A stretch of 64,000 bases of DNA from Verrucomicrobiota bacterium (GCA_041167265.1 JBEEHG010000071.1:10617-74616); one strand, 5' to 3'. Numbered from the stretch's first letter, positions 46,999-56,161 are shown. Numbers and translations are program-made. Notes: generated from the sequence alone by a model not told the origin.

Positions 46999-47753
46999 GT
47001 TTCGCGACCCTTAGGGCCAAATTCGGTCTGTCGATCCTCGGAGTTGTAACCACGTTGTTGATATGGCAGGCAGTCGCATTTGCGGCCGGTGACGCTGGGA
47101 CGCTGCCCGGACCCGTGGCAACGGTAATTGCAGCGTGGAAACTGCTCATCGGCGGATATTGGCGAGACCTGCTCGCGACATCGACCCGCGCCTGTGTTGC
47201 TTTATTGTTGGCACTGGTGGTCGGCGTTCCCAGTGGACTGGTTCTAGGCTGGTCTCAGAGACTCTATGATTCCTTTCGCGGGGTTCTGAGCTTCCTGCGG
47301 TGCCTGCCAGCTTATTTGTTGATTGTCGTGTTCGCAGCCGTCGGTCATGGCGGCGAGACCGCTCGCATAGCGACTGCCGCACTGGCGAGCGCGTGGATAA
47401 TCACCGATGAATGCGCGGAATCGTTACGCACTTTGCCCAGCGACCGAATTGACGTGTTGCGAGCATTACGCGCGGGCAACTGGTTCATTCTCTCGCGAGC
47501 CTTGTTCTTCGAGGCGTTAGGCCGAACAATTGTACCATCCGCAAAAACGGCCGTCGGCATCTGCTTTGTGGTGACGACAGTTGTTGAGGCTCTCGCCATT
47601 CCTCCGTACGGCGTGGGGGCGCGTCTCTTAAGCTTCTTTGCCGGGGCGGAACTGGCGCCGGTATTTGGATTCTTGTTGCTGACCGGTCTGGCAGGCGTCG
47701 TATTGAGCGCTGTAGTACATGGCACGGCGCGGAAGATTATTTTTTGGTCGTGA
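46995..47753 (+). CDS. ABC transporter permease (NitT/TauT-type)
   Basis: The ATG at 46995 overlaps the ATPase stop (ATGA). About 6 TM helices. Confidence 0.8.
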   Translation: MSFATLRAKFGLSILGVVTTLLIWQAVAFAAGDAGTLPGPVATVIAAWKLLIGGYWRDLLATSTRACVALLLALVVGVPSGLVLGWSQRLYDSFRGVLSFLRCLPAYLLIVVFAAVGHGGETARIATAALASAWIITDECAESLRTLPSDRIDVLRALRAGNWFILSRALFFEALGRTIVPSAKTAVGICFVVTTVVEALAIPPYGVGARLLSFFAGAELAPVFGFLLLTGLAGVVLSAVVHGTARKIIFWS

Positions 47754-47809
47754 GTTCTTTGCGAAAACGGCATTCACATCCTTTTTGGCTAGGCCAGTGC
47801 GGGACGCCC

Positions 47810-48175
47810 TTGAGATTTGTTCTCTTTGAACACGTTCTCCCTTTCGGCCCCCCCCATTTTGACTTGATGCTCGAGATGGGGCCGCGTCGCAGGCTTTGGG
47901 GACTACAGACCACATCCGATCCGACTGTGAGCCGGCCCGTTACTGACTGGCAGAATCATGGCACTCATCGCCGCCGGTATTTATCCTTTGAAGGCGACAT
48001 CGGGCAGGGCAGGGGATCAGTAAGAATAATGGACGCGGGCCGGTACGTTGCCAAAATCAGCGGAGAGGGTATCCGAATAGAGTTCGCAGGACGCTTAGGA
48101 CGGCGATCATTCGAAATATTTCCCAACAGTTCTGAAAGTCACTTGCGGGCTCACTTCTCTGAAACGACGCACTAA
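47810..48175 (+). CDS. Stand-alone LigD_N-like (DNA ligase D 3'-phosphoesterase-like) domain protein
   Basis: RFVLFEH...PHFDLMLE...W...HRRRYLSFEGDIGQGRGSVRIMDAGRY. The start is uncertain (TTG at 47810, or TTG at 47744). Confidence 0.55.
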   Translation: MRFVLFEHVLPFGPPHFDLMLEMGPRRRLWGLQTTSDPTVSRPVTDWQNHGTHRRRYLSFEGDIGQGRGSVRIMDAGRYVAKISGEGIRIEFAGRLGRRSFEIFPNSSESHLRAHFSETTH

Positions 48176-48482
48176 GGCGGGCTAGTGCTCCAGGTGTCCG
48201 GACATGAAGGTCCAGAGTGATCATCACAGGGCGCGTATCATTGCTTTACGGGAATCGGCACCCCCTTGGGGGGCTGCCCCGTCGGGCCACCGTCACTGAT
48301 CTCTCGGCGGCGATCAGGAAACCCCCTTGATCATCTTCTCCCGGTCAACTCAGGCTACCGAAATTGGTGCGAGGGGGGAAACGGGGGCCATACGGAAATC
48401 TGCGCCAGGTCAGGTGTACGAGTGCTTCAAAAACATTTTTCTCTAACTAATTGCGGCGAAAGCCCCCTTTGGCTTCCCTTCG

Positions 48483-48694
48483 CCCCAAAAAGAGCGGCGC
48501 GACTCCCCAAAAAGGGGAATCTCCAGGAAGCCGGATCCCAAAACGCACCCTCAAAGAGCCACCGCTTTCCAAAGGGAATCCCCAAGTGCGAGCACGCCCC
48601 AAAAGAGAGCCCCGAAAAACTGGCTCCCGAAAAGGCATCCCCAAAACACGCTCCCCAAAAAGGGAACCCCAAAAGACGTCGAGCTTCCCCAAAA
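48483..48694. repeat. Array of about 12 degenerate CCCC(A/G)AAA(A)G short repeats (iteron- or centromere-like)
   Basis: Copies start near 48483, 48505, 48537, 48580, 48597, 48610, 48626, 48639, 48653, 48667 and 48687. The last eight are spaced 13-20 bp apart, mostly 14 bp. Confidence 0.8.
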
Positions 48695-48696
48695 CC

Positions 48697-48710
48697 CCGC
48701 CCCGGGGCGG
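48697..48710. repeat. Perfect 14-bp GC-rich palindrome CCGCCCCGGGGCGG closing the repeat array
   Basis: Read directly from the sequence; it is self-complementary. Confidence 0.85.
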
Positions 48711-48907
48711 CTCAATCGTTAACCCATAAGTCTTTTGCACCAAATCGCCGGGGGCGGCGAGATAGCGATCTCCTTGGCCGTCCGAGACGCGCGAAATGAC
48801 GTAAATGCTTATTCAAAAGGGTCTTACTCTCGATGGGCGAGGATAGATGAAGAAATCCCTCCGTTGTCTTCGCGCAAAAAAAAGCGTCGCAAGTTCAGTT
48901 TTTTCCT

Positions 48908-49348
48908 TTGCTGCGGCGCTTTTTGACCAAGAAGACCAACGTGACAGCGGTATACATAAAACCCCTGACCTCAGCCGAAACCGGAGGGGCTCCGTACATA
49001 CGGGCGAAGGTGGCAGCGAAAGCCACCGGTCTTGGGCTAAGCACCATCAGGCGCATTGGAACCCGCCGGTTCGGAAACGCGGACTACGTCCGAGTCCGCG
49101 ACATCAACGCGTTCATCGTTGGAGAAATACCAGACGAGATTGCGGGAGCTGGCGAGCGACACGTGACCGTAAATCCCCCTGACGAATCCGTTCTCCCTTC
49201 GTCACTGACTCAGGCGGGAAATCCCCCTTTTTCGAATTTTTCCCAAGTGGTGCCCCCCAAGGACAACAAAAAAAACCCCAAAACAGTGCAACCGGCAGAG
49301 CTCAGTCGGCGGCATCACACCAACGCAGGGGCGACCCTGAAGAGCTAA
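48908..49348 (+). CDS. Putative excisionase/MerR-like HTH DNA-binding protein (start uncertain)
   Basis: YIRAKVAAKATGLGLSTIRRIGTRRFGNADYVRVRDINAFI resembles Xis/AlpA-type HTH proteins. The track start is TTG. Confidence 0.45.
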   Translation: MLRRFLTKKTNVTAVYIKPLTSAETGGAPYIRAKVAAKATGLGLSTIRRIGTRRFGNADYVRVRDINAFIVGEIPDEIAGAGERHVTVNPPDESVLPSSLTQAGNPPFSNFSQVVPPKDNKKNPKTVQPAELSRRHHTNAGATLKS

Positions 49349-49369: not shown

Positions 49370-49657
49370 ATGGAGACTGAAACCAAAAAAATCACTGAGG
49401 TGACCGGGACCAAACGAATAATGGTCAACAACCTCGACTATGTAAAAGTGGGCATGGCGGAACTTGTCGAACCGTTCTCCAAATACGGGCAAATCAAGGA
49501 AGCGTTCCTGTCAAAACCAACGGCGGCGGGGAACAAAAATGCCGGCTGGGCAATACTCGTCGTAGATGACGAGACCGCCGATAAGATTCTCGGCGCCACC
49601 ATCGTAATCGCCAATCGGGTGGTCCGCGTCAGATTGGCGAAGCCAAAAGAGGAATAA
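49370..49657 (+). CDS. Single-domain RNA-recognition-motif (RRM) protein
   Basis: 95 aa with RNP2-like IMVNNL and RNP1-like NAGWAILVV. The overall beta-alpha-beta-beta-alpha-beta length fits an RRM. Confidence 0.55.
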   Translation: METETKKITEVTGTKRIMVNNLDYVKVGMAELVEPFSKYGQIKEAFLSKPTAAGNKNAGWAILVVDDETADKILGATIVIANRVVRVRLAKPKEE

Positions 49658-49862
49658 CCCAGGAACAGCCAGCTTCCGGCGGGCGATGGGGCCCGCCGGA
49701 GGCTGGCCGTCGCCACGCAGCCCACATTCCGGGAAAAGGCCGACTCATGACATTGTCAACCCCTCGCCGCCCCGACGGCAAGGACAACCGGGAAGTCTGC
49801 GAATGAAGATCGGCGCAGAAAACACCTCCCTGCCGGCAAAGGGGGGCAAGGGAAAACAGCGG

Positions 49863-50447
49863 ATGGCTCGCATCACGGCTAAGACCCTGGACTCTCTGTT
49901 GCCAAACGCCGCTGCCTCGTACCCGCGCCACAGCCACGCTGAACTGATTGAAAAGGGGTTAGAGGCGCTGATGGGCAATCCGCAGCCAATCGTCTACTTC
50001 TGTGCACAAGACCCGGAGATCCAGATTCAGACAGCCGCCACACTCGCAGCATTCGAGCAACGGATCGAGAACAATGCGAAGGCTATAACCCGGGCGAAGT
50101 TCGCAGATGCAAAAGATCAGGAAGCCGGACGAGAAGCCGCAAAAGCATTGCTCGTCCTAAAAGATGATATTCGGAAGAGCGTTAAGGGAATCAGCGAAGA
50201 CGCGAATCAATTCCGGAATCTGGTGGCAACGCTGTCACCGTTATTGCCGATCGCCGAACAGGGCCTTAAACGCTGGCTCGATTTTGTCCAAGATATCAAG
50301 AAAAGGGAGGCCGCCTATAGGAGCAATGGGGAGCAGGCAAGAGCGGACGCGCAAAATGAATTCGCTCAGCAAATTCTAAAGGAAACCTCCGCGCTTCAGG
50401 AAATCATGCGAGCGCTAACCCCCGCGGACGGCCCGCCATCGCCATGA
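49863..50447 (+). CDS. Alpha-helical hypothetical protein (start uncertain: 49686, 49803 or 49863)
   Basis: The ORF ends in an ATGA overlap with the next gene. Helical, charged sequence. Confidence 0.5.
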   Translation: MARITAKTLDSLLPNAAASYPRHSHAELIEKGLEALMGNPQPIVYFCAQDPEIQIQTAATLAAFEQRIENNAKAITRAKFADAKDQEAGREAAKALLVLKDDIRKSVKGISEDANQFRNLVATLSPLLPIAEQGLKRWLDFVQDIKKREAAYRSNGEQARADAQNEFAQQILKETSALQEIMRALTPADGPPSP

Positions 50448-51328
50448 TGAAGCTGGCTGATCTCCCTTTGGAAATTCTGCAAAGGCTGGATGGGTTGTGG
50501 GGACGAATCCGGTATCAGGTCGACAAGGAGGACAAAGATCACGAAAAGAAAATTCTCCATACCCCAGGAAACTATAACTGCGTAGACCAGACCCCGGCCG
50601 CGTTCGCGGCGGCGGTCCTTCGGAACGCCGCCCGTTATTGGGAGAGCCGGAAAGGAAAGGTCGGGAAACGCACTTCGATTATTTTTCACGAATTCATCTA
50701 TTCGTCGTCGGAGGCGGCCTTCTTGTCGAAAACGGAACGCGCCGCAATCGGGGCAGAGATTGTTTCGCTCTTTCCCGACGTTCCCATCCGGCTGGCCTGG
50801 CACGAAGACCCCGTGACCGGGAGAAGCGACTTGCACGTTTTGTTCGGTTATCACACCGAGGAAAATCCCCCCCGAGTCTTGCTCAGCGCCCGTTATGGAG
50901 CCGGAAAACGCTCCTTTTCATTTACCGCATTCATTACCGAAAAACGGATCAACGAGAGCTTGAATCAAGCGCGAGGCCCGATCGAGAACCGGCTCGTCAC
51001 CACCGCCGAGGTTGGCCGGGAACGTCGTCCCAAACGAAACCGCGAAAAGCAGACTCCAGCAGACATCCTGATCACGATTCTTGGGCCGGATTGGGATGGG
51101 GAGCGGAAAAACCTGATCCCCATCCTGAGAAAGAAAAAGATCGCCGTGACTCGTCATAACGACGAGTTCTTGAGCGTGGTCCTGCCCGGCCGCAAGAGGG
51201 CGGTTCGCCTCTATCTGGACGAACTCGTTCAGGCATATGACCGCGCTAAACAGCGGCAAATTGCGGCGGCCAAAACGGCCGCCAGAAAGAAGAGACAGCT
51301 CGGCAGCCAGGCGGCTGACGACCTGTAA
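50444..51328 (+). CDS. Hypothetical protein, weakly relaxase/mobilisation-nuclease-like
   Basis: AWHEDPVTGRSDLHVLF resembles an HxD...HxH relaxase metal motif, but one His is missing. Basic C-terminal tail. The call is weak. Confidence 0.35.
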   Translation: MMKLADLPLEILQRLDGLWGRIRYQVDKEDKDHEKKILHTPGNYNCVDQTPAAFAAAVLRNAARYWESRKGKVGKRTSIIFHEFIYSSSEAAFLSKTERAAIGAEIVSLFPDVPIRLAWHEDPVTGRSDLHVLFGYHTEENPPRVLLSARYGAGKRSFSFTAFITEKRINESLNQARGPIENRLVTTAEVGRERRPKRNREKQTPADILITILGPDWDGERKNLIPILRKKKIAVTRHNDEFLSVVLPGRKRAVRLYLDELVQAYDRAKQRQIAAAKTAARKKRQLGSQAADDL

Positions 51329-51383
51329 ACGGTTGCGTCAACGAATGGTAAACCATCTCGTTAACGTCGAAACGTACCAGGCA

Positions 51384-51478
51384 GTTATATCCCGTAAACA
51401 AAAGCGTAAACGCTTTGTTGACCGGTTCGTTTACACGAACCTCGGGATATAACAGCCATGGTTAGGGTCGACCCCTAA
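51384..51478. repeat. Cluster of inverted repeats (candidate oriT or regulatory structure)
   Basis: An 11-bp perfect IR, GTTATATCCCG (51384-94) with CGGGATATAAC (51443-53), encloses GGTTCG-TTTACA-CGAACC. A TTAGGG-TCGA-CCCCTAA near-palindrome follows at about 51462-78. Confidence 0.6.
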
Positions 51479-51956
51479 GACCCGCAGCCACGCTCGAAGA
51501 CGCTCGCTGGTTGAAGGCGCCAAAGCTAGTCGCGGCGCAGACGCATTTGCGCCCGTCCGTCCGCTCGCGATGCTACGAAAAGACAGCCGGACGGTCGTAG
51601 AACGCGCGCAACCTCACCAGCAATTGGACCCGCCCAAAAGCTGCGATCCGGCTTGAGACTTGGCAAGGCCGGATGCGGTCGTGCCGCAAATTGACGTCCC
51701 GTGCTCCCCGGGCCGTCCAACCAAAATCGCGGCCCGAAACGCCAACCCGAGCGGGGAAGTCTAAACACCGTCAGAAATGGAAATGCCTGTGCTGGCCTCA
51801 GTGCGGAGGGTTGCCGCGCTGGCGCACGGCAACGCTGGCAGGGCTTGTTTCAATTTGCCTCCCGTTCTTCGACCTGTCCTGGGTTTCTTGCCTGCTTGCA
51901 TCTTGGGATTGGTTCGCCGCCGACTGGCGCTCAAGCCGGAAAACATCGAAATCCCA

Positions 51957-52277
51957 ATGGAAAACACAACATCAAACAAACAGAGAACCTTTCTTTCAAC
52001 AGACGGCTTGGTTCGTATCACAACCACAACGCGACCGCGGCGCTGGCCACCACACTCCTTCCCCGTCGTCATCGTCACGCTAAAACCCCGAAAAGGAACA
52101 CGTATCCTGCCCTTGCCTGAAGCCGGGGTAGAATGGATGCCGCGGTACAGCGAAGTCCTGTCGCTGCTTTTGCAAATGGGGTTAACCGTAACCACAGCGC
52201 CGTCGGACAAACCAGAAGCGCGGCGTCTGCGATTCGAAAAACTCAACGCCTGGCGACACCGGAGGAATCGCCGATGA
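51957..52277 (+). CDS. Small hypothetical protein
   Basis: The stop overlaps the AAA+ ATPase ATG (ATGA at 52274-77). The start is uncertain (ATG at 51957 or upstream at 51777). Confidence 0.4.
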   Translation: MENTTSNKQRTFLSTDGLVRITTTTRPRRWPPHSFPVVIVTLKPRKGTRILPLPEAGVEWMPRYSEVLSLLLQMGLTVTTAPSDKPEARRLRFEKLNAWRHRRNRR

Positions 52278-53179
52278 ACAGTGCAGCCCGACCGGCTCGA
52301 TACCAACTCTCAGCCTTCCACGAGCTGCGCGAGTTAGCGGCCGACTACTACGACTTTGATTGGCGATCCCTCCCAGTGTCACCGCGAATGAACGTTCTCC
52401 TCTGTTCGGGAACCGGTACCGGGAAAACATTCCTATCAGCACACCTGGCACGCGAGCTGGGAATCCCACGCCTGCTCTTAACATTCGGAAATTGGATTGT
52501 GAGTGGTGCGCGCGCTCGGGGAGGACTCCAGACGTTGCCACTGTTGTATAGTTTCATCGACCGATACGAACGAGGAATCATCGCGCTCGACGAAATCGAC
52601 AAGATCGCTTCCCCAGACGGGACAGGCGAGTGGACGCGAGCCGTCCAGTTGGAAATATTTTCTGTCTTGGACAAGGTCGTCTTGCCCGGGATCGTGGAAG
52701 CCGGACAGCACGGCGAGGACGGGCCACTATTTACACTGAGGCGAGAGGACATCGAGCGCCGGTTCGCTCGGGGCTACTTCATCGTCGGTAGCGGGGCGTG
52801 GGAGCACCTATGGCGCGCGCCAAGCGCGGCTGGCTTCATCCCGCCTTCCAATGCCGCTCAGCGGCCGACATACGACCAGCTCTTGCAAACGATTCCGGCA
52901 GAAATTCTGAACCGATTTCGCGGAGAAGTTTTATACCTAGGACCGTTGACTAAGGCAGACTACGAATCTCTCCTTGAGGAGACGTTGCATCGCCTTCCGC
53001 AGGAATTCGCGCCGTTCGTTCAAGACGGGGCAGCAAAATCGCTGAATGAAGCGGTTCGGACGCAAAGAGGGTATCGTTGGATCGAGGAATTGGTTGCGAC
53101 AGCGATTCGCGCTGTCCGGACCTGTCAACTCAACAAGCTTCAAATAGGGCCAGCGCGTGAAATGCTCGATCCGAGTTGA
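52274..53179 (+). CDS. AAA+ family ATPase
   Basis: GGAGGA Shine-Dalgarno 8 nt upstream of the ATG at 52274. Walker A CSGTGTGKT and Walker B IIALDEIDK. Confidence 0.8.
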   Translation: MNSAARPARYQLSAFHELRELAADYYDFDWRSLPVSPRMNVLLCSGTGTGKTFLSAHLARELGIPRLLLTFGNWIVSGARARGGLQTLPLLYSFIDRYERGIIALDEIDKIASPDGTGEWTRAVQLEIFSVLDKVVLPGIVEAGQHGEDGPLFTLRREDIERRFARGYFIVGSGAWEHLWRAPSAAGFIPPSNAAQRPTYDQLLQTIPAEILNRFRGEVLYLGPLTKADYESLLEETLHRLPQEFAPFVQDGAAKSLNEAVRTQRGYRWIEELVATAIRAVRTCQLNKLQIGPAREMLDPS

Positions 53180-53335: not shown

Positions 53336-53878
53336 ATGAAATGTGAACCGCCAGAACAAAAACAGATTGGAGTCTTCCTGCGGGATAGCTCGCATCCCTT
53401 TCGGCCTTACGGCGCTTGTGTCATCCGCATGCAACCGCTTTCCAATTCGCGGGTCGTGTCGATAGATTCACACGCTTTGCGTATAGCCTTTGTTGCTTCG
53501 GAGGTGCGGATTCTTGCCGCCGCGATGAATCGCGCGCATCCGCGTCTACGGACTGACCTGAAGACGCCGATCTACGATGTGAACCGCGGTTACGTTCCGG
53601 GCAAACGGGACGTTCCATTTCTCATCGCGCTCGCGGCGCCCGATAGAACGGTGAAGATAGGAATTGAGACGGTAGCCTCGGTCAGACATCCCGTCGTGGA
53701 GCTCCGATGGAAGGCTGGATCGGCGGTTCGAAAAGCCGGAGCTCACGTGCGATGGATGCCGACGTGGGCCGAGTTTAGAATTTTATACGCGGAGTTCTCG
53801 ATTCCGCCGCACTCCGCGCAAGCCGAAGCACCGTTCTCGAAAACTGTTCGGACGAAAAGCGCCGGACCATACCGATGA
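53336..53878 (+). CDS. Hypothetical protein
   Basis: A 180-aa ORF whose stop overlaps the next ATG (ATGA). No family recognised. Confidence 0.5.
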   Translation: MKCEPPEQKQIGVFLRDSSHPFRPYGACVIRMQPLSNSRVVSIDSHALRIAFVASEVRILAAAMNRAHPRLRTDLKTPIYDVNRGYVPGKRDVPFLIALAAPDRTVKIGIETVASVRHPVVELRWKAGSAVRKAGAHVRWMPTWAEFRILYAEFSIPPHSAQAEAPFSKTVRTKSAGPYR

Positions 53879-54192
53879 TCACGATCAACTTGGCTCCGCT
53901 GCACCCTGTGACCGTAGTCGCAAACGATCAGCGTCGATATCACTTTGCGCGCTTCATCGCGATGTCTGGGCGCTTCATGGTAGTTGAATTACGAAAGACT
54001 CCGGAGGACTCCGGCTTTTTGGTGACTCACGTCATTCTCGACCTCTTTGGTCTACTAGGCGTCGTTCGCGTCGGAACCGTCTCTATTCAGATCGACTGTG
54101 TTAACGTGTCGTTAACGGGAAAGCGCTTCTTACGATTGCAGCCGACGGACGCCCTAGCGCTTAAGATCCGAATTACACCCTCGCACAAGTAA
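53875..54192 (+). CDS. Hypothetical protein
   Basis: A 105-aa ORF, translationally coupled on both sides. Confidence 0.45.
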   Translation: MITINLAPLHPVTVVANDQRRYHFARFIAMSGRFMVVELRKTPEDSGFLVTHVILDLFGLLGVVRVGTVSIQIDCVNVSLTGKRFLRLQPTDALALKIRITPSHK

Positions 54193-54506
54193 TGATTGCG
54201 GATTTGGACACCCCGATGTGTTGCTCGGCGGCAGAACTTGCGGAGCAGGAATACATTGGCCTTCTCAAACCATCACGAAAGCAAATCGCAAAGATGATTG
54301 AGCAAACCTTTGATCAGATCTGGCACGCCCGGCATGTGCAATTGGGCCGGCCCGAACCGGGGGAGGAATCTGCCATTGCAATTGAATCCAAGTATCCAAA
54401 AGAGTTCTTGACGCTATGTGACGATTGCCTCCTTCGCGCTGAGGGGCGGCTGGGTGCCTTGCGATGGGTACTCCACGGTGCGTTCATCGAAAATTACGAC
54501 ACCTAG
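54192..54506 (+). CDS. Hypothetical protein
   Basis: A 104-aa ORF whose ATG immediately follows the upstream TAA. Confidence 0.45.
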   Translation: MIADLDTPMCCSAAELAEQEYIGLLKPSRKQIAKMIEQTFDQIWHARHVQLGRPEPGEESAIAIESKYPKEFLTLCDDCLLRAEGRLGALRWVLHGAFIENYDT

Positions 54507-55210: not shown

Positions 55211-56161
55211 TTAAAGTTCTCCATTCTCGATCCAAGCTTTTATTCGCGTGAATTTTGAGTCCGGCCAGCCCCGGTCCACTTTGGTCCGGAGCAGGTCCGC
55301 TAAGGCCTGTTCTCGAGTGTACCGGGATTGTTTGAGACCACCCGCCGCGATAAACATAGGGATGAGCTCCGAGTCAGCCGCGGCAGGCTTTTCGTGGAGT
55401 AGCGCGGCTTGCAGACCCACGGAAGGATCGGCCCCGGCCTGCAAAAGCATTTCCACTATTTCTTTCGAATTGGTTTGCAGCGCTTTGTATCGTCCCGGGA
55501 TCTTTTCGCGGCGGGCCTCGTAGGCGTCGTAATTCCAGGCGCCGTAATCCAAAATGGCGACCAAAGGATGCCCGTTGTTTTTGTCGGAACCATTGGGATC
55601 GGCTTTCGCGTCCAGAAGCAACCGGACGATTTCCGGCGCGGTCGCGCCGTTCTTGGCGGCCATCGGTAGCGGACGGTAACCGTTGTCCGTGATGTTCGGA
55701 TTCGCGCCGACATCGAGCAAGGCTTTGACACACTGCGTCGCTCTGAGCCGCACAGCATGAATCAGGGCCGGCGGGCGCGGGTTCGCGCTATTTATACTGG
55801 CAGCGGCTCCGTTGCCCAAAAGAACTTTGAGAACTTCTGCCTGTCGAGTATCCACCGATCGGAATCGTTCCACTTCTTCAGGCGAAGGGTTATAGCCGTT
55901 GAATGCTTGGGAAACCGGCTCGATGGCGAGGTAGAGAAAGTCGTTGTCATCTTTCTTCGAGATAAGCGGCTTCACTGTGGAAAGCTGGAGCAGCGTTCTG
56001 AGATCTTCACTTTTTCCGCTAACGACCGCTTGTCGGATCCGGGCGCGATCATCAGCGGCCCAGGCCGATCGAGCATGGAGCGTTACCATCAGCATGATTG
56101 CCAAGCATGGTCGCCAAAGATTGCCAGCGGGGTTGCGTGGAGTCGTTGATCGGGGGCGCAT
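55211..56161 (-). CDS. Secreted ankyrin-repeat protein
   Basis: Signal peptide ...MLMVTLHARSAWA/AD. Repeated ankyrin-type LL(D/Q)xGA(N/D)P(N/S) motifs (LLDVGANPN, LLDAKADPN, LLQAGADPS). Confidence 0.8.
   Translation of the reverse strand: MRPRSTTPRNPAGNLWRPCLAIMLMVTLHARSAWAADDRARIRQAVVSGKSEDLRTLLQLSTVKPLISKKDDNDFLYLAIEPVSQAFNGYNPSPEEVERFRSVDTRQAEVLKVLLGNGAAASINSANPRPPALIHAVRLRATQCVKALLDVGANPNITDNGYRPLPMAAKNGATAPEIVRLLLDAKADPNGSDKNNGHPLVAILDYGAWNYDAYEARREKIPGRYKALQTNSKEIVEMLLQAGADPSVGLQAALLHEKPAAADSELIPMFIAAGGLKQSRYTREQALADLLRTKVDRGWPDSKFTRIKAWIENGEL

Follow-up and report, generated by a model that had tools for sequence, protein, structure and literature searches.

Repeat arrays that recruit proteins encoded by the element that carries them are familiar in plasmids, phages and islands. 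In the iterons of F, P1, RK2 and pPS10, the repeats are 17–22 bp long and are bound by Rep. Short-repeat arrays act as operators or centromeres in the omega heptads of pSM19035, in ParR–parC of R1 and pSK41, and in ParG–parH of TP228; contiguous units of 7–8 bp, as we describe below for locus L011, are possible in this class. A further class, the Excisionase/Cox/Apl-type arrays, comprises the X1–X2 sites of lambda Xis, the Cox boxes of P2 and the Apl sites of 186, and its proteins serve as regulators and architectural factors alike. Finally, the telomeric repeats of ciliates, C4A4/G4T4, have single-strand binding proteins.

The array analyzed here lies in a JGI metagenome contig labeled by NCBI as a Verrucomicrobiota MAG, of which we studied a stretch of 64,000 nucleotides (the window). 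It shares features with each of these systems without matching any of them. As in plasmid iterons, direct repeats in the same orientation occupy the control region of a mobile element, but the unit is half as long, there is no phasing at about 22 bp, and Rep, a DnaA box and an AT-rich region are all missing. The omega, ParR and ParG arrays likewise have 7–16 short units in one orientation at the head of an operon whose first gene encodes a small nucleic-acid-binding protein, a putative one in our case; here, however, there is no partition NTPase and no recognizable ribbon-helix-helix protein, the spacing is variable, and the element is integrated in a chromosome. With the Xis, Cox and Apl arrays it has in common direct repeats near the end of an integrated element, beside a small gene whose product resembles a winged helix-turn-helix (HTH), but there is no integrase and no Xis or HTH_17 match, the units are more numerous, and their spacing is not one helical turn. 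The unit sequence is that of ciliate telomeres, the units of L011 are nearly contiguous, and a protein of single-strand-binding (RRM) type is encoded alongside; in contrast to telomeres, the array is internal on a bacterial chromosome, has unrelated spacers between its units, and shows no sign of a DNA end or of templated addition. The host island can also be compared with the MOBQ and MOBF modules (R1162 MobA, F TraI), with which it shares a relaxase fold (in a 294-aa protein), an N-terminal Tyr followed by His, and pairing with a hairpin. The hairpin partner is the element at 51325–51485 and not the array, however, and sequence similarity to known relaxases is almost nil.

The array and its relatives

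The array stands in a 750-bp gap between genes (48176–48922), where it is the sole large repeat feature of the operon's non-coding head. The elements of this region are as follows.

48289–48362, plus strand: conserved non-coding block near the left edge of the island, 84% identical to L016 and also present in L003
48483–48694, plus strand: repeat array of 12 units, C3–4 (A/G) A2–4 (G), defined by pattern counts, shuffles and a position weight matrix (PWM)
48483, 48505, 48536, ~48569, 48580, 48597, 48610, 48625, 48639, 48653, 48667 and 48687, plus strand: starts of the 12 units
48697–48710, no strand: perfect 14-bp palindrome CCGCCCCGGGGCGG, abutting the array and probably incidental (sequence, chance count)
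48797–48812, plus strand: conserved box GTGACGTAAATGCTTA, located after the array and ahead of the first gene, common to L011 and L003

The general unit type is CCCCAAAA(G); written as an oligonucleotide, the C4A4-type unit is CCCCAAAAG. On the plus strand there are 10 copies of CCC[AG]AAA, eight of them CCCC[AG]AAA, and on the minus strand there are none. With the degenerate units CCAAAG and CCCCAAG included the count is 12, in agreement with the original prediction, made from the sequence alone, of about 12 repeats of the type CCCC(A/G)AAA(A)G. Start-to-start spacings are 22, 31, 31, 13, 17, 13, 15, 14, 14, 14 and 20 bp, with about six consecutive values of 13–15 bp, and the 14-bp interval that the prediction gave for the last copies holds approximately for the last seven or eight. 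These 14-bp-spaced units carry different spacers and are thus not recent duplicates of one another. Tandem Repeats Finder, proposed at the outset as a check, reports no more than a weak 13/14-bp array (score 42), since unrelated spacers separate the units.

The clustering of units is far beyond chance. Only 30 plus-strand matches to CCC[AG]AAA occur in the whole 64 kb, so that the 10 found within 212 bp place one third of all matches in 0.3% of the window. Out of 300 first-order Markov shuffles, none gave a cluster of more than 3 copies anywhere in the window, and 2000 shuffles at the region's own composition gave a mean of 1.2 and a maximum of 6, versus the 10 observed. The array is also the most C-run-skewed 200 nt in the window, 5.4 sd from the mean. 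Its spacers are G-rich, G makes up 22% of the array, and the region folds better than its shuffles (z −3.7).

The array is real, strand-polar and non-coding. Gene callers disagree over the region or call nothing there, and no tRNA, Rfam or CRISPR-like element was found. In the near-identical locus L002, which is 98.8% identical to the window across the 750-bp gap, the array differs at three places, with a single substitution in a spacer, a deletion of 1 nt and an insertion of 2 nt, all in spacers or in one degenerate unit. A coding repeat protein was considered and rejected, given these frame-breaking indels, spacings that are not multiples of 3, and the lack of an ORF common to the arrays of the compared loci. 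Frames are open across the region because T makes up only 9–12% of its plus strand, as had been supposed. On these points the original prediction is upheld: the array is a non-coding, strand-polar series of direct repeats in the control region of a mobile-looking element, and the conserved one-frame repeat protein that would have contradicted it was looked for in the related loci and not found.

The perfect 14-bp palindrome to which the prediction drew attention is indeed present directly after the array, but it is neither unusual nor conserved. The window contains 8 perfect palindromes of at least 14 bp against 6.2 expected by chance, and this one is kept only in L002, being absent from L003, L004, L011, L015 and L016. 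A role as terminator or nick hairpin was rejected: no T-run follows the palindrome, which is not conserved and not statistically unusual.

A search for the motif in related elements, also proposed originally, found equivalent arrays in seven related modules, linked to genes of predicted nucleic-acid-binding proteins. The modules with an array are those of the window, L003, L004, L011 (two separate modules), L015 and L016, and in addition L137. Their features are the following.

L003: decayed array, the most decayed of all
L004: TCCCCCAAAA(G/C)G, with four 14-bp intervals
L011 to L014: about 16 units, with spacing alternating between 7 and 11 nt (CCCCCAAACCCCAAAGCT)
L011, other module: CCCCAAA(A) units, almost contiguous (CCCCAAACCCCAAAG...), upstream of an HTH-like paralog and an RRM-like gene
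L015: looser, rather degenerate array; the adjacent protein is intact
L016: seven units, spacing 7–13 nt
L137: two or three units

Unit and strand are common to the seven modules, copy number ranges from 5 to 16, and spacing ranges from 7 to 31 nt, with a period of 7–8 nt in the almost contiguous L011 array; that of L004 contains a recent 28-bp tandem duplication. The related arrays lie on the strand of the genes and stop 100–235 bp short of the HTH-like gene, and every related module whose upstream DNA is available has such an array. When units are scored across a whole locus on both strands, no cluster ranks above the array in the window, L004, both L011 modules, L015 or L016. A position matrix built from 56 units reads (T/C)CCCC-AAA(A)-(G), with flanks otherwise unconstrained, and in it the A-run and the following G are as well conserved as the C-run. 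The arrays contain 37–43% C and 11–22% G, with little T, and C exceeds G in all of them. Unit, orientation and position are kept across modules whose adjacent proteins are 43–69% identical and whose spacers are unrelated. The unit persists although spacers and copy number diverge, a sign that the units themselves are under selection; since all of the arrays are related by descent, their common orientation does not count as separate evidence.

Several further observations concern these loci. The two array modules of L011 (5280–6165 and 9725–10600) each include an HTH-like gene and lie 4.5 kb apart in a locus that has no relaxase; the first has its own RRM-like gene. Their neighborhood looks like a defense island because it contains GmrSD_N, HNH_5 and PDDEXK_4 genes, and the L003 island is similarly placed, flanked by nSTAND3/DUF4238 and RHS genes. 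In L137, a stretch at 1630–1690, upstream of a short HTH-like paralog, resembles by eye the 3′ part of a tRNA on the minus strand; ARAGORN finds no tRNA there, and the stretch may be an att remnant. A DNA-pattern scan of GTDB for CCCCAAA(A/G) units with 2–12-nt spacers returned at least 120 arrays (L017–L136) from many phyla, a raw count from which we draw no conclusion; none of these loci encodes the island proteins. PVC-group MAGs are well represented among them, the arrays of L064, L089 and L105 lie at contig ends and look like ciliate C4A4 telomere contamination, and that of L124 is a coding repeat.

The host island and its proteins

To the left of the gap are an ABC-transporter operon and a small LigD_N-like ORF, and to its right are co-oriented genes without family annotation. 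In metagenome contigs these genes recur in the order HTH-like, 95-aa, ~214-aa, 294-aa, ~166-aa, AAA+ ATPase and three small genes, and an 80-aa paralog of the HTH-like protein is sometimes encoded after the 95-aa protein. Because the same run recurs with quite different flanks, it behaves as an island of about 6.6 kb, with the array at its left edge; on all long contigs its context is chromosomal. Its features in the window are these.

48923–49348, plus strand: first gene of the cassette, encoding a 141-aa HTH-like protein; alternative TTG start at 48908
49370–49657, plus strand: 95-aa protein of predicted RRM fold, a single-stranded nucleic-acid binder by fold (profile search)
49803–50447, plus strand: 214-aa helical protein (sequence); its stop overlaps the start of the relaxase gene
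50444–51328, plus strand: 294-aa protein of remote HUH relaxase fold (AlphaFold2 (AF2), Foldseek, alignment)
51325–51485, plus strand: multi-hairpin element of about 160 nt, directly after the relaxase gene (identity, covariation, fold)
52133–53179, plus strand: AAA+ ATPase of the classic clade with a ClpX/Cdc48-like ATPase core; the true start is possibly further downstream
53336–54506, plus strand: three further conserved island genes, of 180, 105 and 104 aa

The 141-aa protein has a conserved basic N-terminal domain of about 70 aa (YIKPLTPAETGGAPYIR..LAAKATGLGLS..RRFGNADYV..VNAFI) that to the eye resembles a winged HTH. It has no match in Pfam, NCBIfam, PHROGs or PDB profiles, and hhalign comparisons with AlpA and Tn916 Xis give probabilities below 1%. 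The Tn916-Xis family is touched by one of 12 relatives, at E 0.081, and not by the window protein. The description of this protein as an Xis-like HTH, given in the original prediction, thus found no support in the Pfam, PDB-profile or hhalign tests.

For the 95-aa protein, the RRM fold is confirmed at the level of sequence profiles. A profile of eight members of the family matches 99 RRM chains in the PDB, among them PABP (3.2e-6), TDP-43, Hrp1, hnRNP A1 and D, and a bacterial ssDNA-binding RRM, and Pfam RRM_1 is the top match, below threshold, in seven of the eight. Wherever enough sequence of an array-bearing locus is available (the window, L003, L004, L011 and L015), the locus includes an RRM gene. 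In L003 (8254–9087) the HTH-like and RRM genes are fused in frame, and the same 267-aa call is found in JGI 3300067032; this fusion, seen in two independent assemblies, ties the two proteins together in function. The HTH-like part of the L003 protein carries a 12-residue in-frame deletion in its conserved core, in the locus with the most decayed array.

The original prediction placed mobilization-like genes downstream of the array, and this holds for the 294-aa protein, which on the evidence of its predicted structure is a remote relaxase. It has eight close homologs and about 90 remote relatives (50% clustering), and Y24, H33, H120 and H131 are invariant in the family. The AlphaFold2 model reaches a pLDDT of 94.8 with a 61-sequence alignment (55 with an alignment of nine sequences), and the PDB structures that Foldseek ranks first against it are without exception conjugative relaxase domains: F TraI (E 9.5e-4), pCU1 TraI, R1162 MobA (TM 0.53 on the target) and NES. 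Pfam Relaxase (PF03432) is touched by two of 61 relatives, at E 0.0017. As a separate observation, the relaxases of the window and L002 (10001–10885) are 89% identical, compared with 97–99% for the neighboring genes, which suggests local recombination or fast evolution of the relaxase gene.

The multi-hairpin element after the relaxase gene recurs in L003 (10882–11056), L004 (10882–11058), L006 (2745–2919), L010 (2110–2284) and L008 (1649–1825). Its nucleotide identity is about 95% where the relaxases are 75–80% identical in protein. It shows seven compensatory pairs, some of them in L008, the most divergent locus, and its ssDNA fold has a z of −7.66 against shuffles. The element itself has no Rfam family match, and the window has none at the gathering score, with one chance-level match (E 0.062) elsewhere. 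All nine relaxase loci have the element, and L011 lacks it. Judged from these comparisons, 51325–51485 probably serves a new relaxase family as its oriT or as a structured RNA. The relaxase gene that the definition of an oriT calls for is present in the island together with this element. The array has no oriT-type hairpin, and its cassette is also found without a relaxase, in L011. Because of this L011 pattern and the linkage of the hairpin to the relaxase in nine of nine loci, the array belongs with the HTH-like and RRM genes rather than with the relaxase, and the island can be seen as containing two separable cis/trans pairs, the relaxase with its hairpin element, and the array with the HTH-like protein, with or without the RRM protein.

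At the left edge, the conserved block contains a small hairpin, CTGATC (48296–48301) with GATCAG (48312–48317), that has one compensatory change in L003; structure across 48280–48420 is not significant (z −0.55, with that single compensatory pair). The ATG at 48805 in the conserved box opens a 13-codon uORF, MLIQKGLTLDGRG, and box and uORF lie within 48797–48846. The uORF resembles the N terminus of a 198-aa protein of L011, in which the corresponding stretch and the HTH-like domain share one frame; the ATG may once have been the start codon, or the uORF may encode a leader peptide. The small ORF abutting the left edge (47744–48175) has a sub-threshold LigD 3′-phosphoesterase domain (PF13298, E 8e-6). 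ARAGORN calls a tRNA-Pyl (anticodon CTA) at 47210–47305, within the ORF of the ABC-transporter permease and likewise in L002, probably a false positive. To the right of the island, an ankyrin-repeat gene is found in three loci (window 55211–56161, minus strand; L006 7727–7906; L011 17306–18557), adjoined in the window and L011 by an HTH_3 gene. They could be part of the island, or they could flag an insertion site common to these loci. PADLOC reports a weak similarity of the AAA+ protein to IetA.

The island family has no annotated relatives. None turned up in 72,556 plasmids, 50,697 phage records, IMG/VR or the GTDB representative genomes, and only a handful were found among 5.8 billion metagenomic proteins. 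Scans of GTDB with the relaxase alignment returned nothing or no usable pattern, and a metagenome scan for relatives returned one short contig. A literature search found nothing on this C4A4 motif or this combination of genes.

Readings of the array

The reading that we favor, with a probability of roughly 0.4, is that the array is a duplex binding platform for the HTH-like protein of the cassette, with the RRM protein as its partner, and that it controls the operon. A protein-binding platform is most likely, rather than an origin, because the array is always next to the genes of two small proteins predicted to bind nucleic acids. Three elements of this reading are inferred: DNA binding by the HTH-like protein, its recognition of these units, and a regulatory outcome. 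The cassette would consist of the array, an interval of 100–235 bp, the small basic HTH-like gene and, usually, the RRM-fold gene, and would head the operon of an island of about 6.6 kb in Verrucomicrobiota. Many copies of the HTH-like protein would load side by side on duplex units of 8–10 bp, C4A3–4(G), which all point the same way, and form a nucleoprotein array ahead of the operon. Its effect would be to set the expression of the island genes, through autoregulation or as an on/off switch, much like the operators of omega, ParR, Cox and Apl. The RRM partner would engage a single strand at the array, either melted DNA or the nascent transcript. Consistent with this reading are the strict linkage of the array to the HTH-like gene, the retention of its units but not of its spacers, its position at the head of the operon, its decay in L003, the sole lineage in which the HTH-like core is deleted, and the fusion of the HTH-like and RRM genes in that same lineage. 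Three points weigh against it. The DNA-binding nature of the 141-aa protein is judged from appearance by eye. The spacing is not helically phased and varies (14 bp in the window and L004, 7/11 in L011, 7–13 in L016), which would be out of the ordinary if a winged HTH bound the duplex cooperatively and suits single-strand recognition no less well. And in L015 the protein is intact, yet the array is rather degenerate. Sigma-70 promoter scans of six loci placed no promoter, and their output was uninformative.

The array could instead act as a single-stranded nucleic acid, a transcribed, C-rich 5′ leader with little structure or a transferred or displaced DNA strand, that is bound by the RRM protein through C4A4 or T4G4 and controls Rho loading or termination, RNA stability or the handling of ssDNA. 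We regard this as the main rival, credible but unlikely. It would explain the free spacing (7–31 nt, down to the contiguous 7–8-nt period in L011), the strict polarity and the telomere-like unit at least as well as duplex binding would. The RRM fold and the presence of its gene wherever enough sequence is available speak in its favor, as do the excess of C over G and low T in the arrays and the hairpin-plus-T-run motifs found just upstream of the first gene in some loci. Yet the L011 module with the largest array has no RRM gene of its own, although one 4 kb away could act in trans, and the RRM of L003 is intact while the array has decayed. The Rho-site features, for which one expects about 80 nt of transcribed, C-rich, G-poor sequence with little structure, are likewise mixed: C exceeds G in every array, but the G-rich spacers of the window and its fold set it apart from classic rut sites. 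A related proposal, also unlikely and put a shade more cautiously, is a novel type of bacterial cassette in which the RRM protein and a novel partner read a telomere-like, strand-polar C4A4/T4G4 array in single-stranded form, either as leader RNA while it is being made or as DNA of a strand that has been displaced or transferred. If true, a bacterial mobile element would have an RRM-based control system whose repeat code is its own, and the cassette would serve to activate or protect a hitherto unknown class of relaxase-bearing islands in Verrucomicrobiota.

The remaining explanations attribute the array to DNA transfer, to replication or partition, or to its composition. The array is probably not the nick site of the island relaxase. 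As a relaxosome accessory site in an extended oriT, comparable to the TraM and TraK sites or the 8-bp TRS repeats of Streptomyces clt, it would be coated by a protein that aids the relaxase or the transfer machine; the relaxase-fold protein of the island and the proximity of the array to the left edge, beside the conserved block with its small hairpin, would fit, but the relaxase-free cassette of L011, the strict linkage of the relaxase to an element 2.6 kb away, and the lack of any detected coupling-protein or T4SS gene make this quite improbable. Nor does the array look like an iteron origin. The original prediction had labeled it an iteron, centromere or origin-like element, or alternatively a site for recombination proteins, and these labels were not supported. 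Searches of Pfam, NCBIfam and PHROGs assigned no island protein to a Rep, ParA, ParM or integrase family, and primase and TubZ families were likewise not detected. No DnaA box (with up to one mismatch) occurs between 47401 and 59475, and an AT-rich unwinding region is lacking, as GC in 60-bp windows never falls below 0.42. Iterons number at least three, are about 17–22 bp long and are spaced by about two turns, whereas here the units are 8–10 nt and the spacing is 13–15 bp. The only NTPase of the island is the classic-clade AAA+ protein and not a partition NTPase. Excisionase-type arrays are not matched either, as there is no Xis, HTH_17 or Cox family hit, no integrase or recombinase family among the island proteins, and no significant att-type repeat between the island ends. 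The origin and centromere labels thus fail on the defining features examined, as the units are short, the spacing varies, partner genes are missing, and the element is integrated in chromosomes, as on all long contigs, with no relative among the plasmids searched. In favor of an origin or centromere of a plasmid-capable element are the non-coding direct repeats in a mobile-looking element and the arrangement of an array and a downstream small-protein gene in the same operon, with binding putative, which resembles the type Ib/II centromere-operators; overall we consider this very unlikely. A G-quadruplex on the minus strand with an i-motif on the plus strand, acting without a specific binder, for instance as a pause site for a polymerase or for transcription, could account for the extreme C-run skew, and the quadruplex potential of the minus strand is real in L011 and L016, whose arrays contain canonical four-run motifs with short loops. 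It is weak in the window, however: there and in L003, L004 and L015 the loops are at least 8–13 nt, with none of 7 nt or less, and a pure quadruplex element would need neither the A-run nor the following G, both of which are conserved. We give it very little credence. Equally little is due to a neutral, slippage-prone tract or a coding repeat. Variable copy number, the tandem duplication in L004 and the open frames would be expected of these, but unit, orientation and position are retained despite the divergence of the adjacent proteins, the 14-bp-spaced units differ in their spacers, and the coding version conflicts with the indels, spacings and missing shared ORF noted above.

Implications for mobile elements of Verrucomicrobiota

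As a kind of element, a repeat array that recruits element-encoded proteins is already known. The novelty lies in its family and unit, in the RRM protein as partner and in the island that hosts it. A bacterial RRM protein as partner is rare in the biology of mobile elements. The cassette and the relaxase with its hairpin together offer a small system, of three short proteins and two cis-elements, for studying the movement or regulation of DNA in uncultured Verrucomicrobiota, and they bring to light a remote relaxase family, as predicted by structure, with a strikingly conserved structured cis-element.
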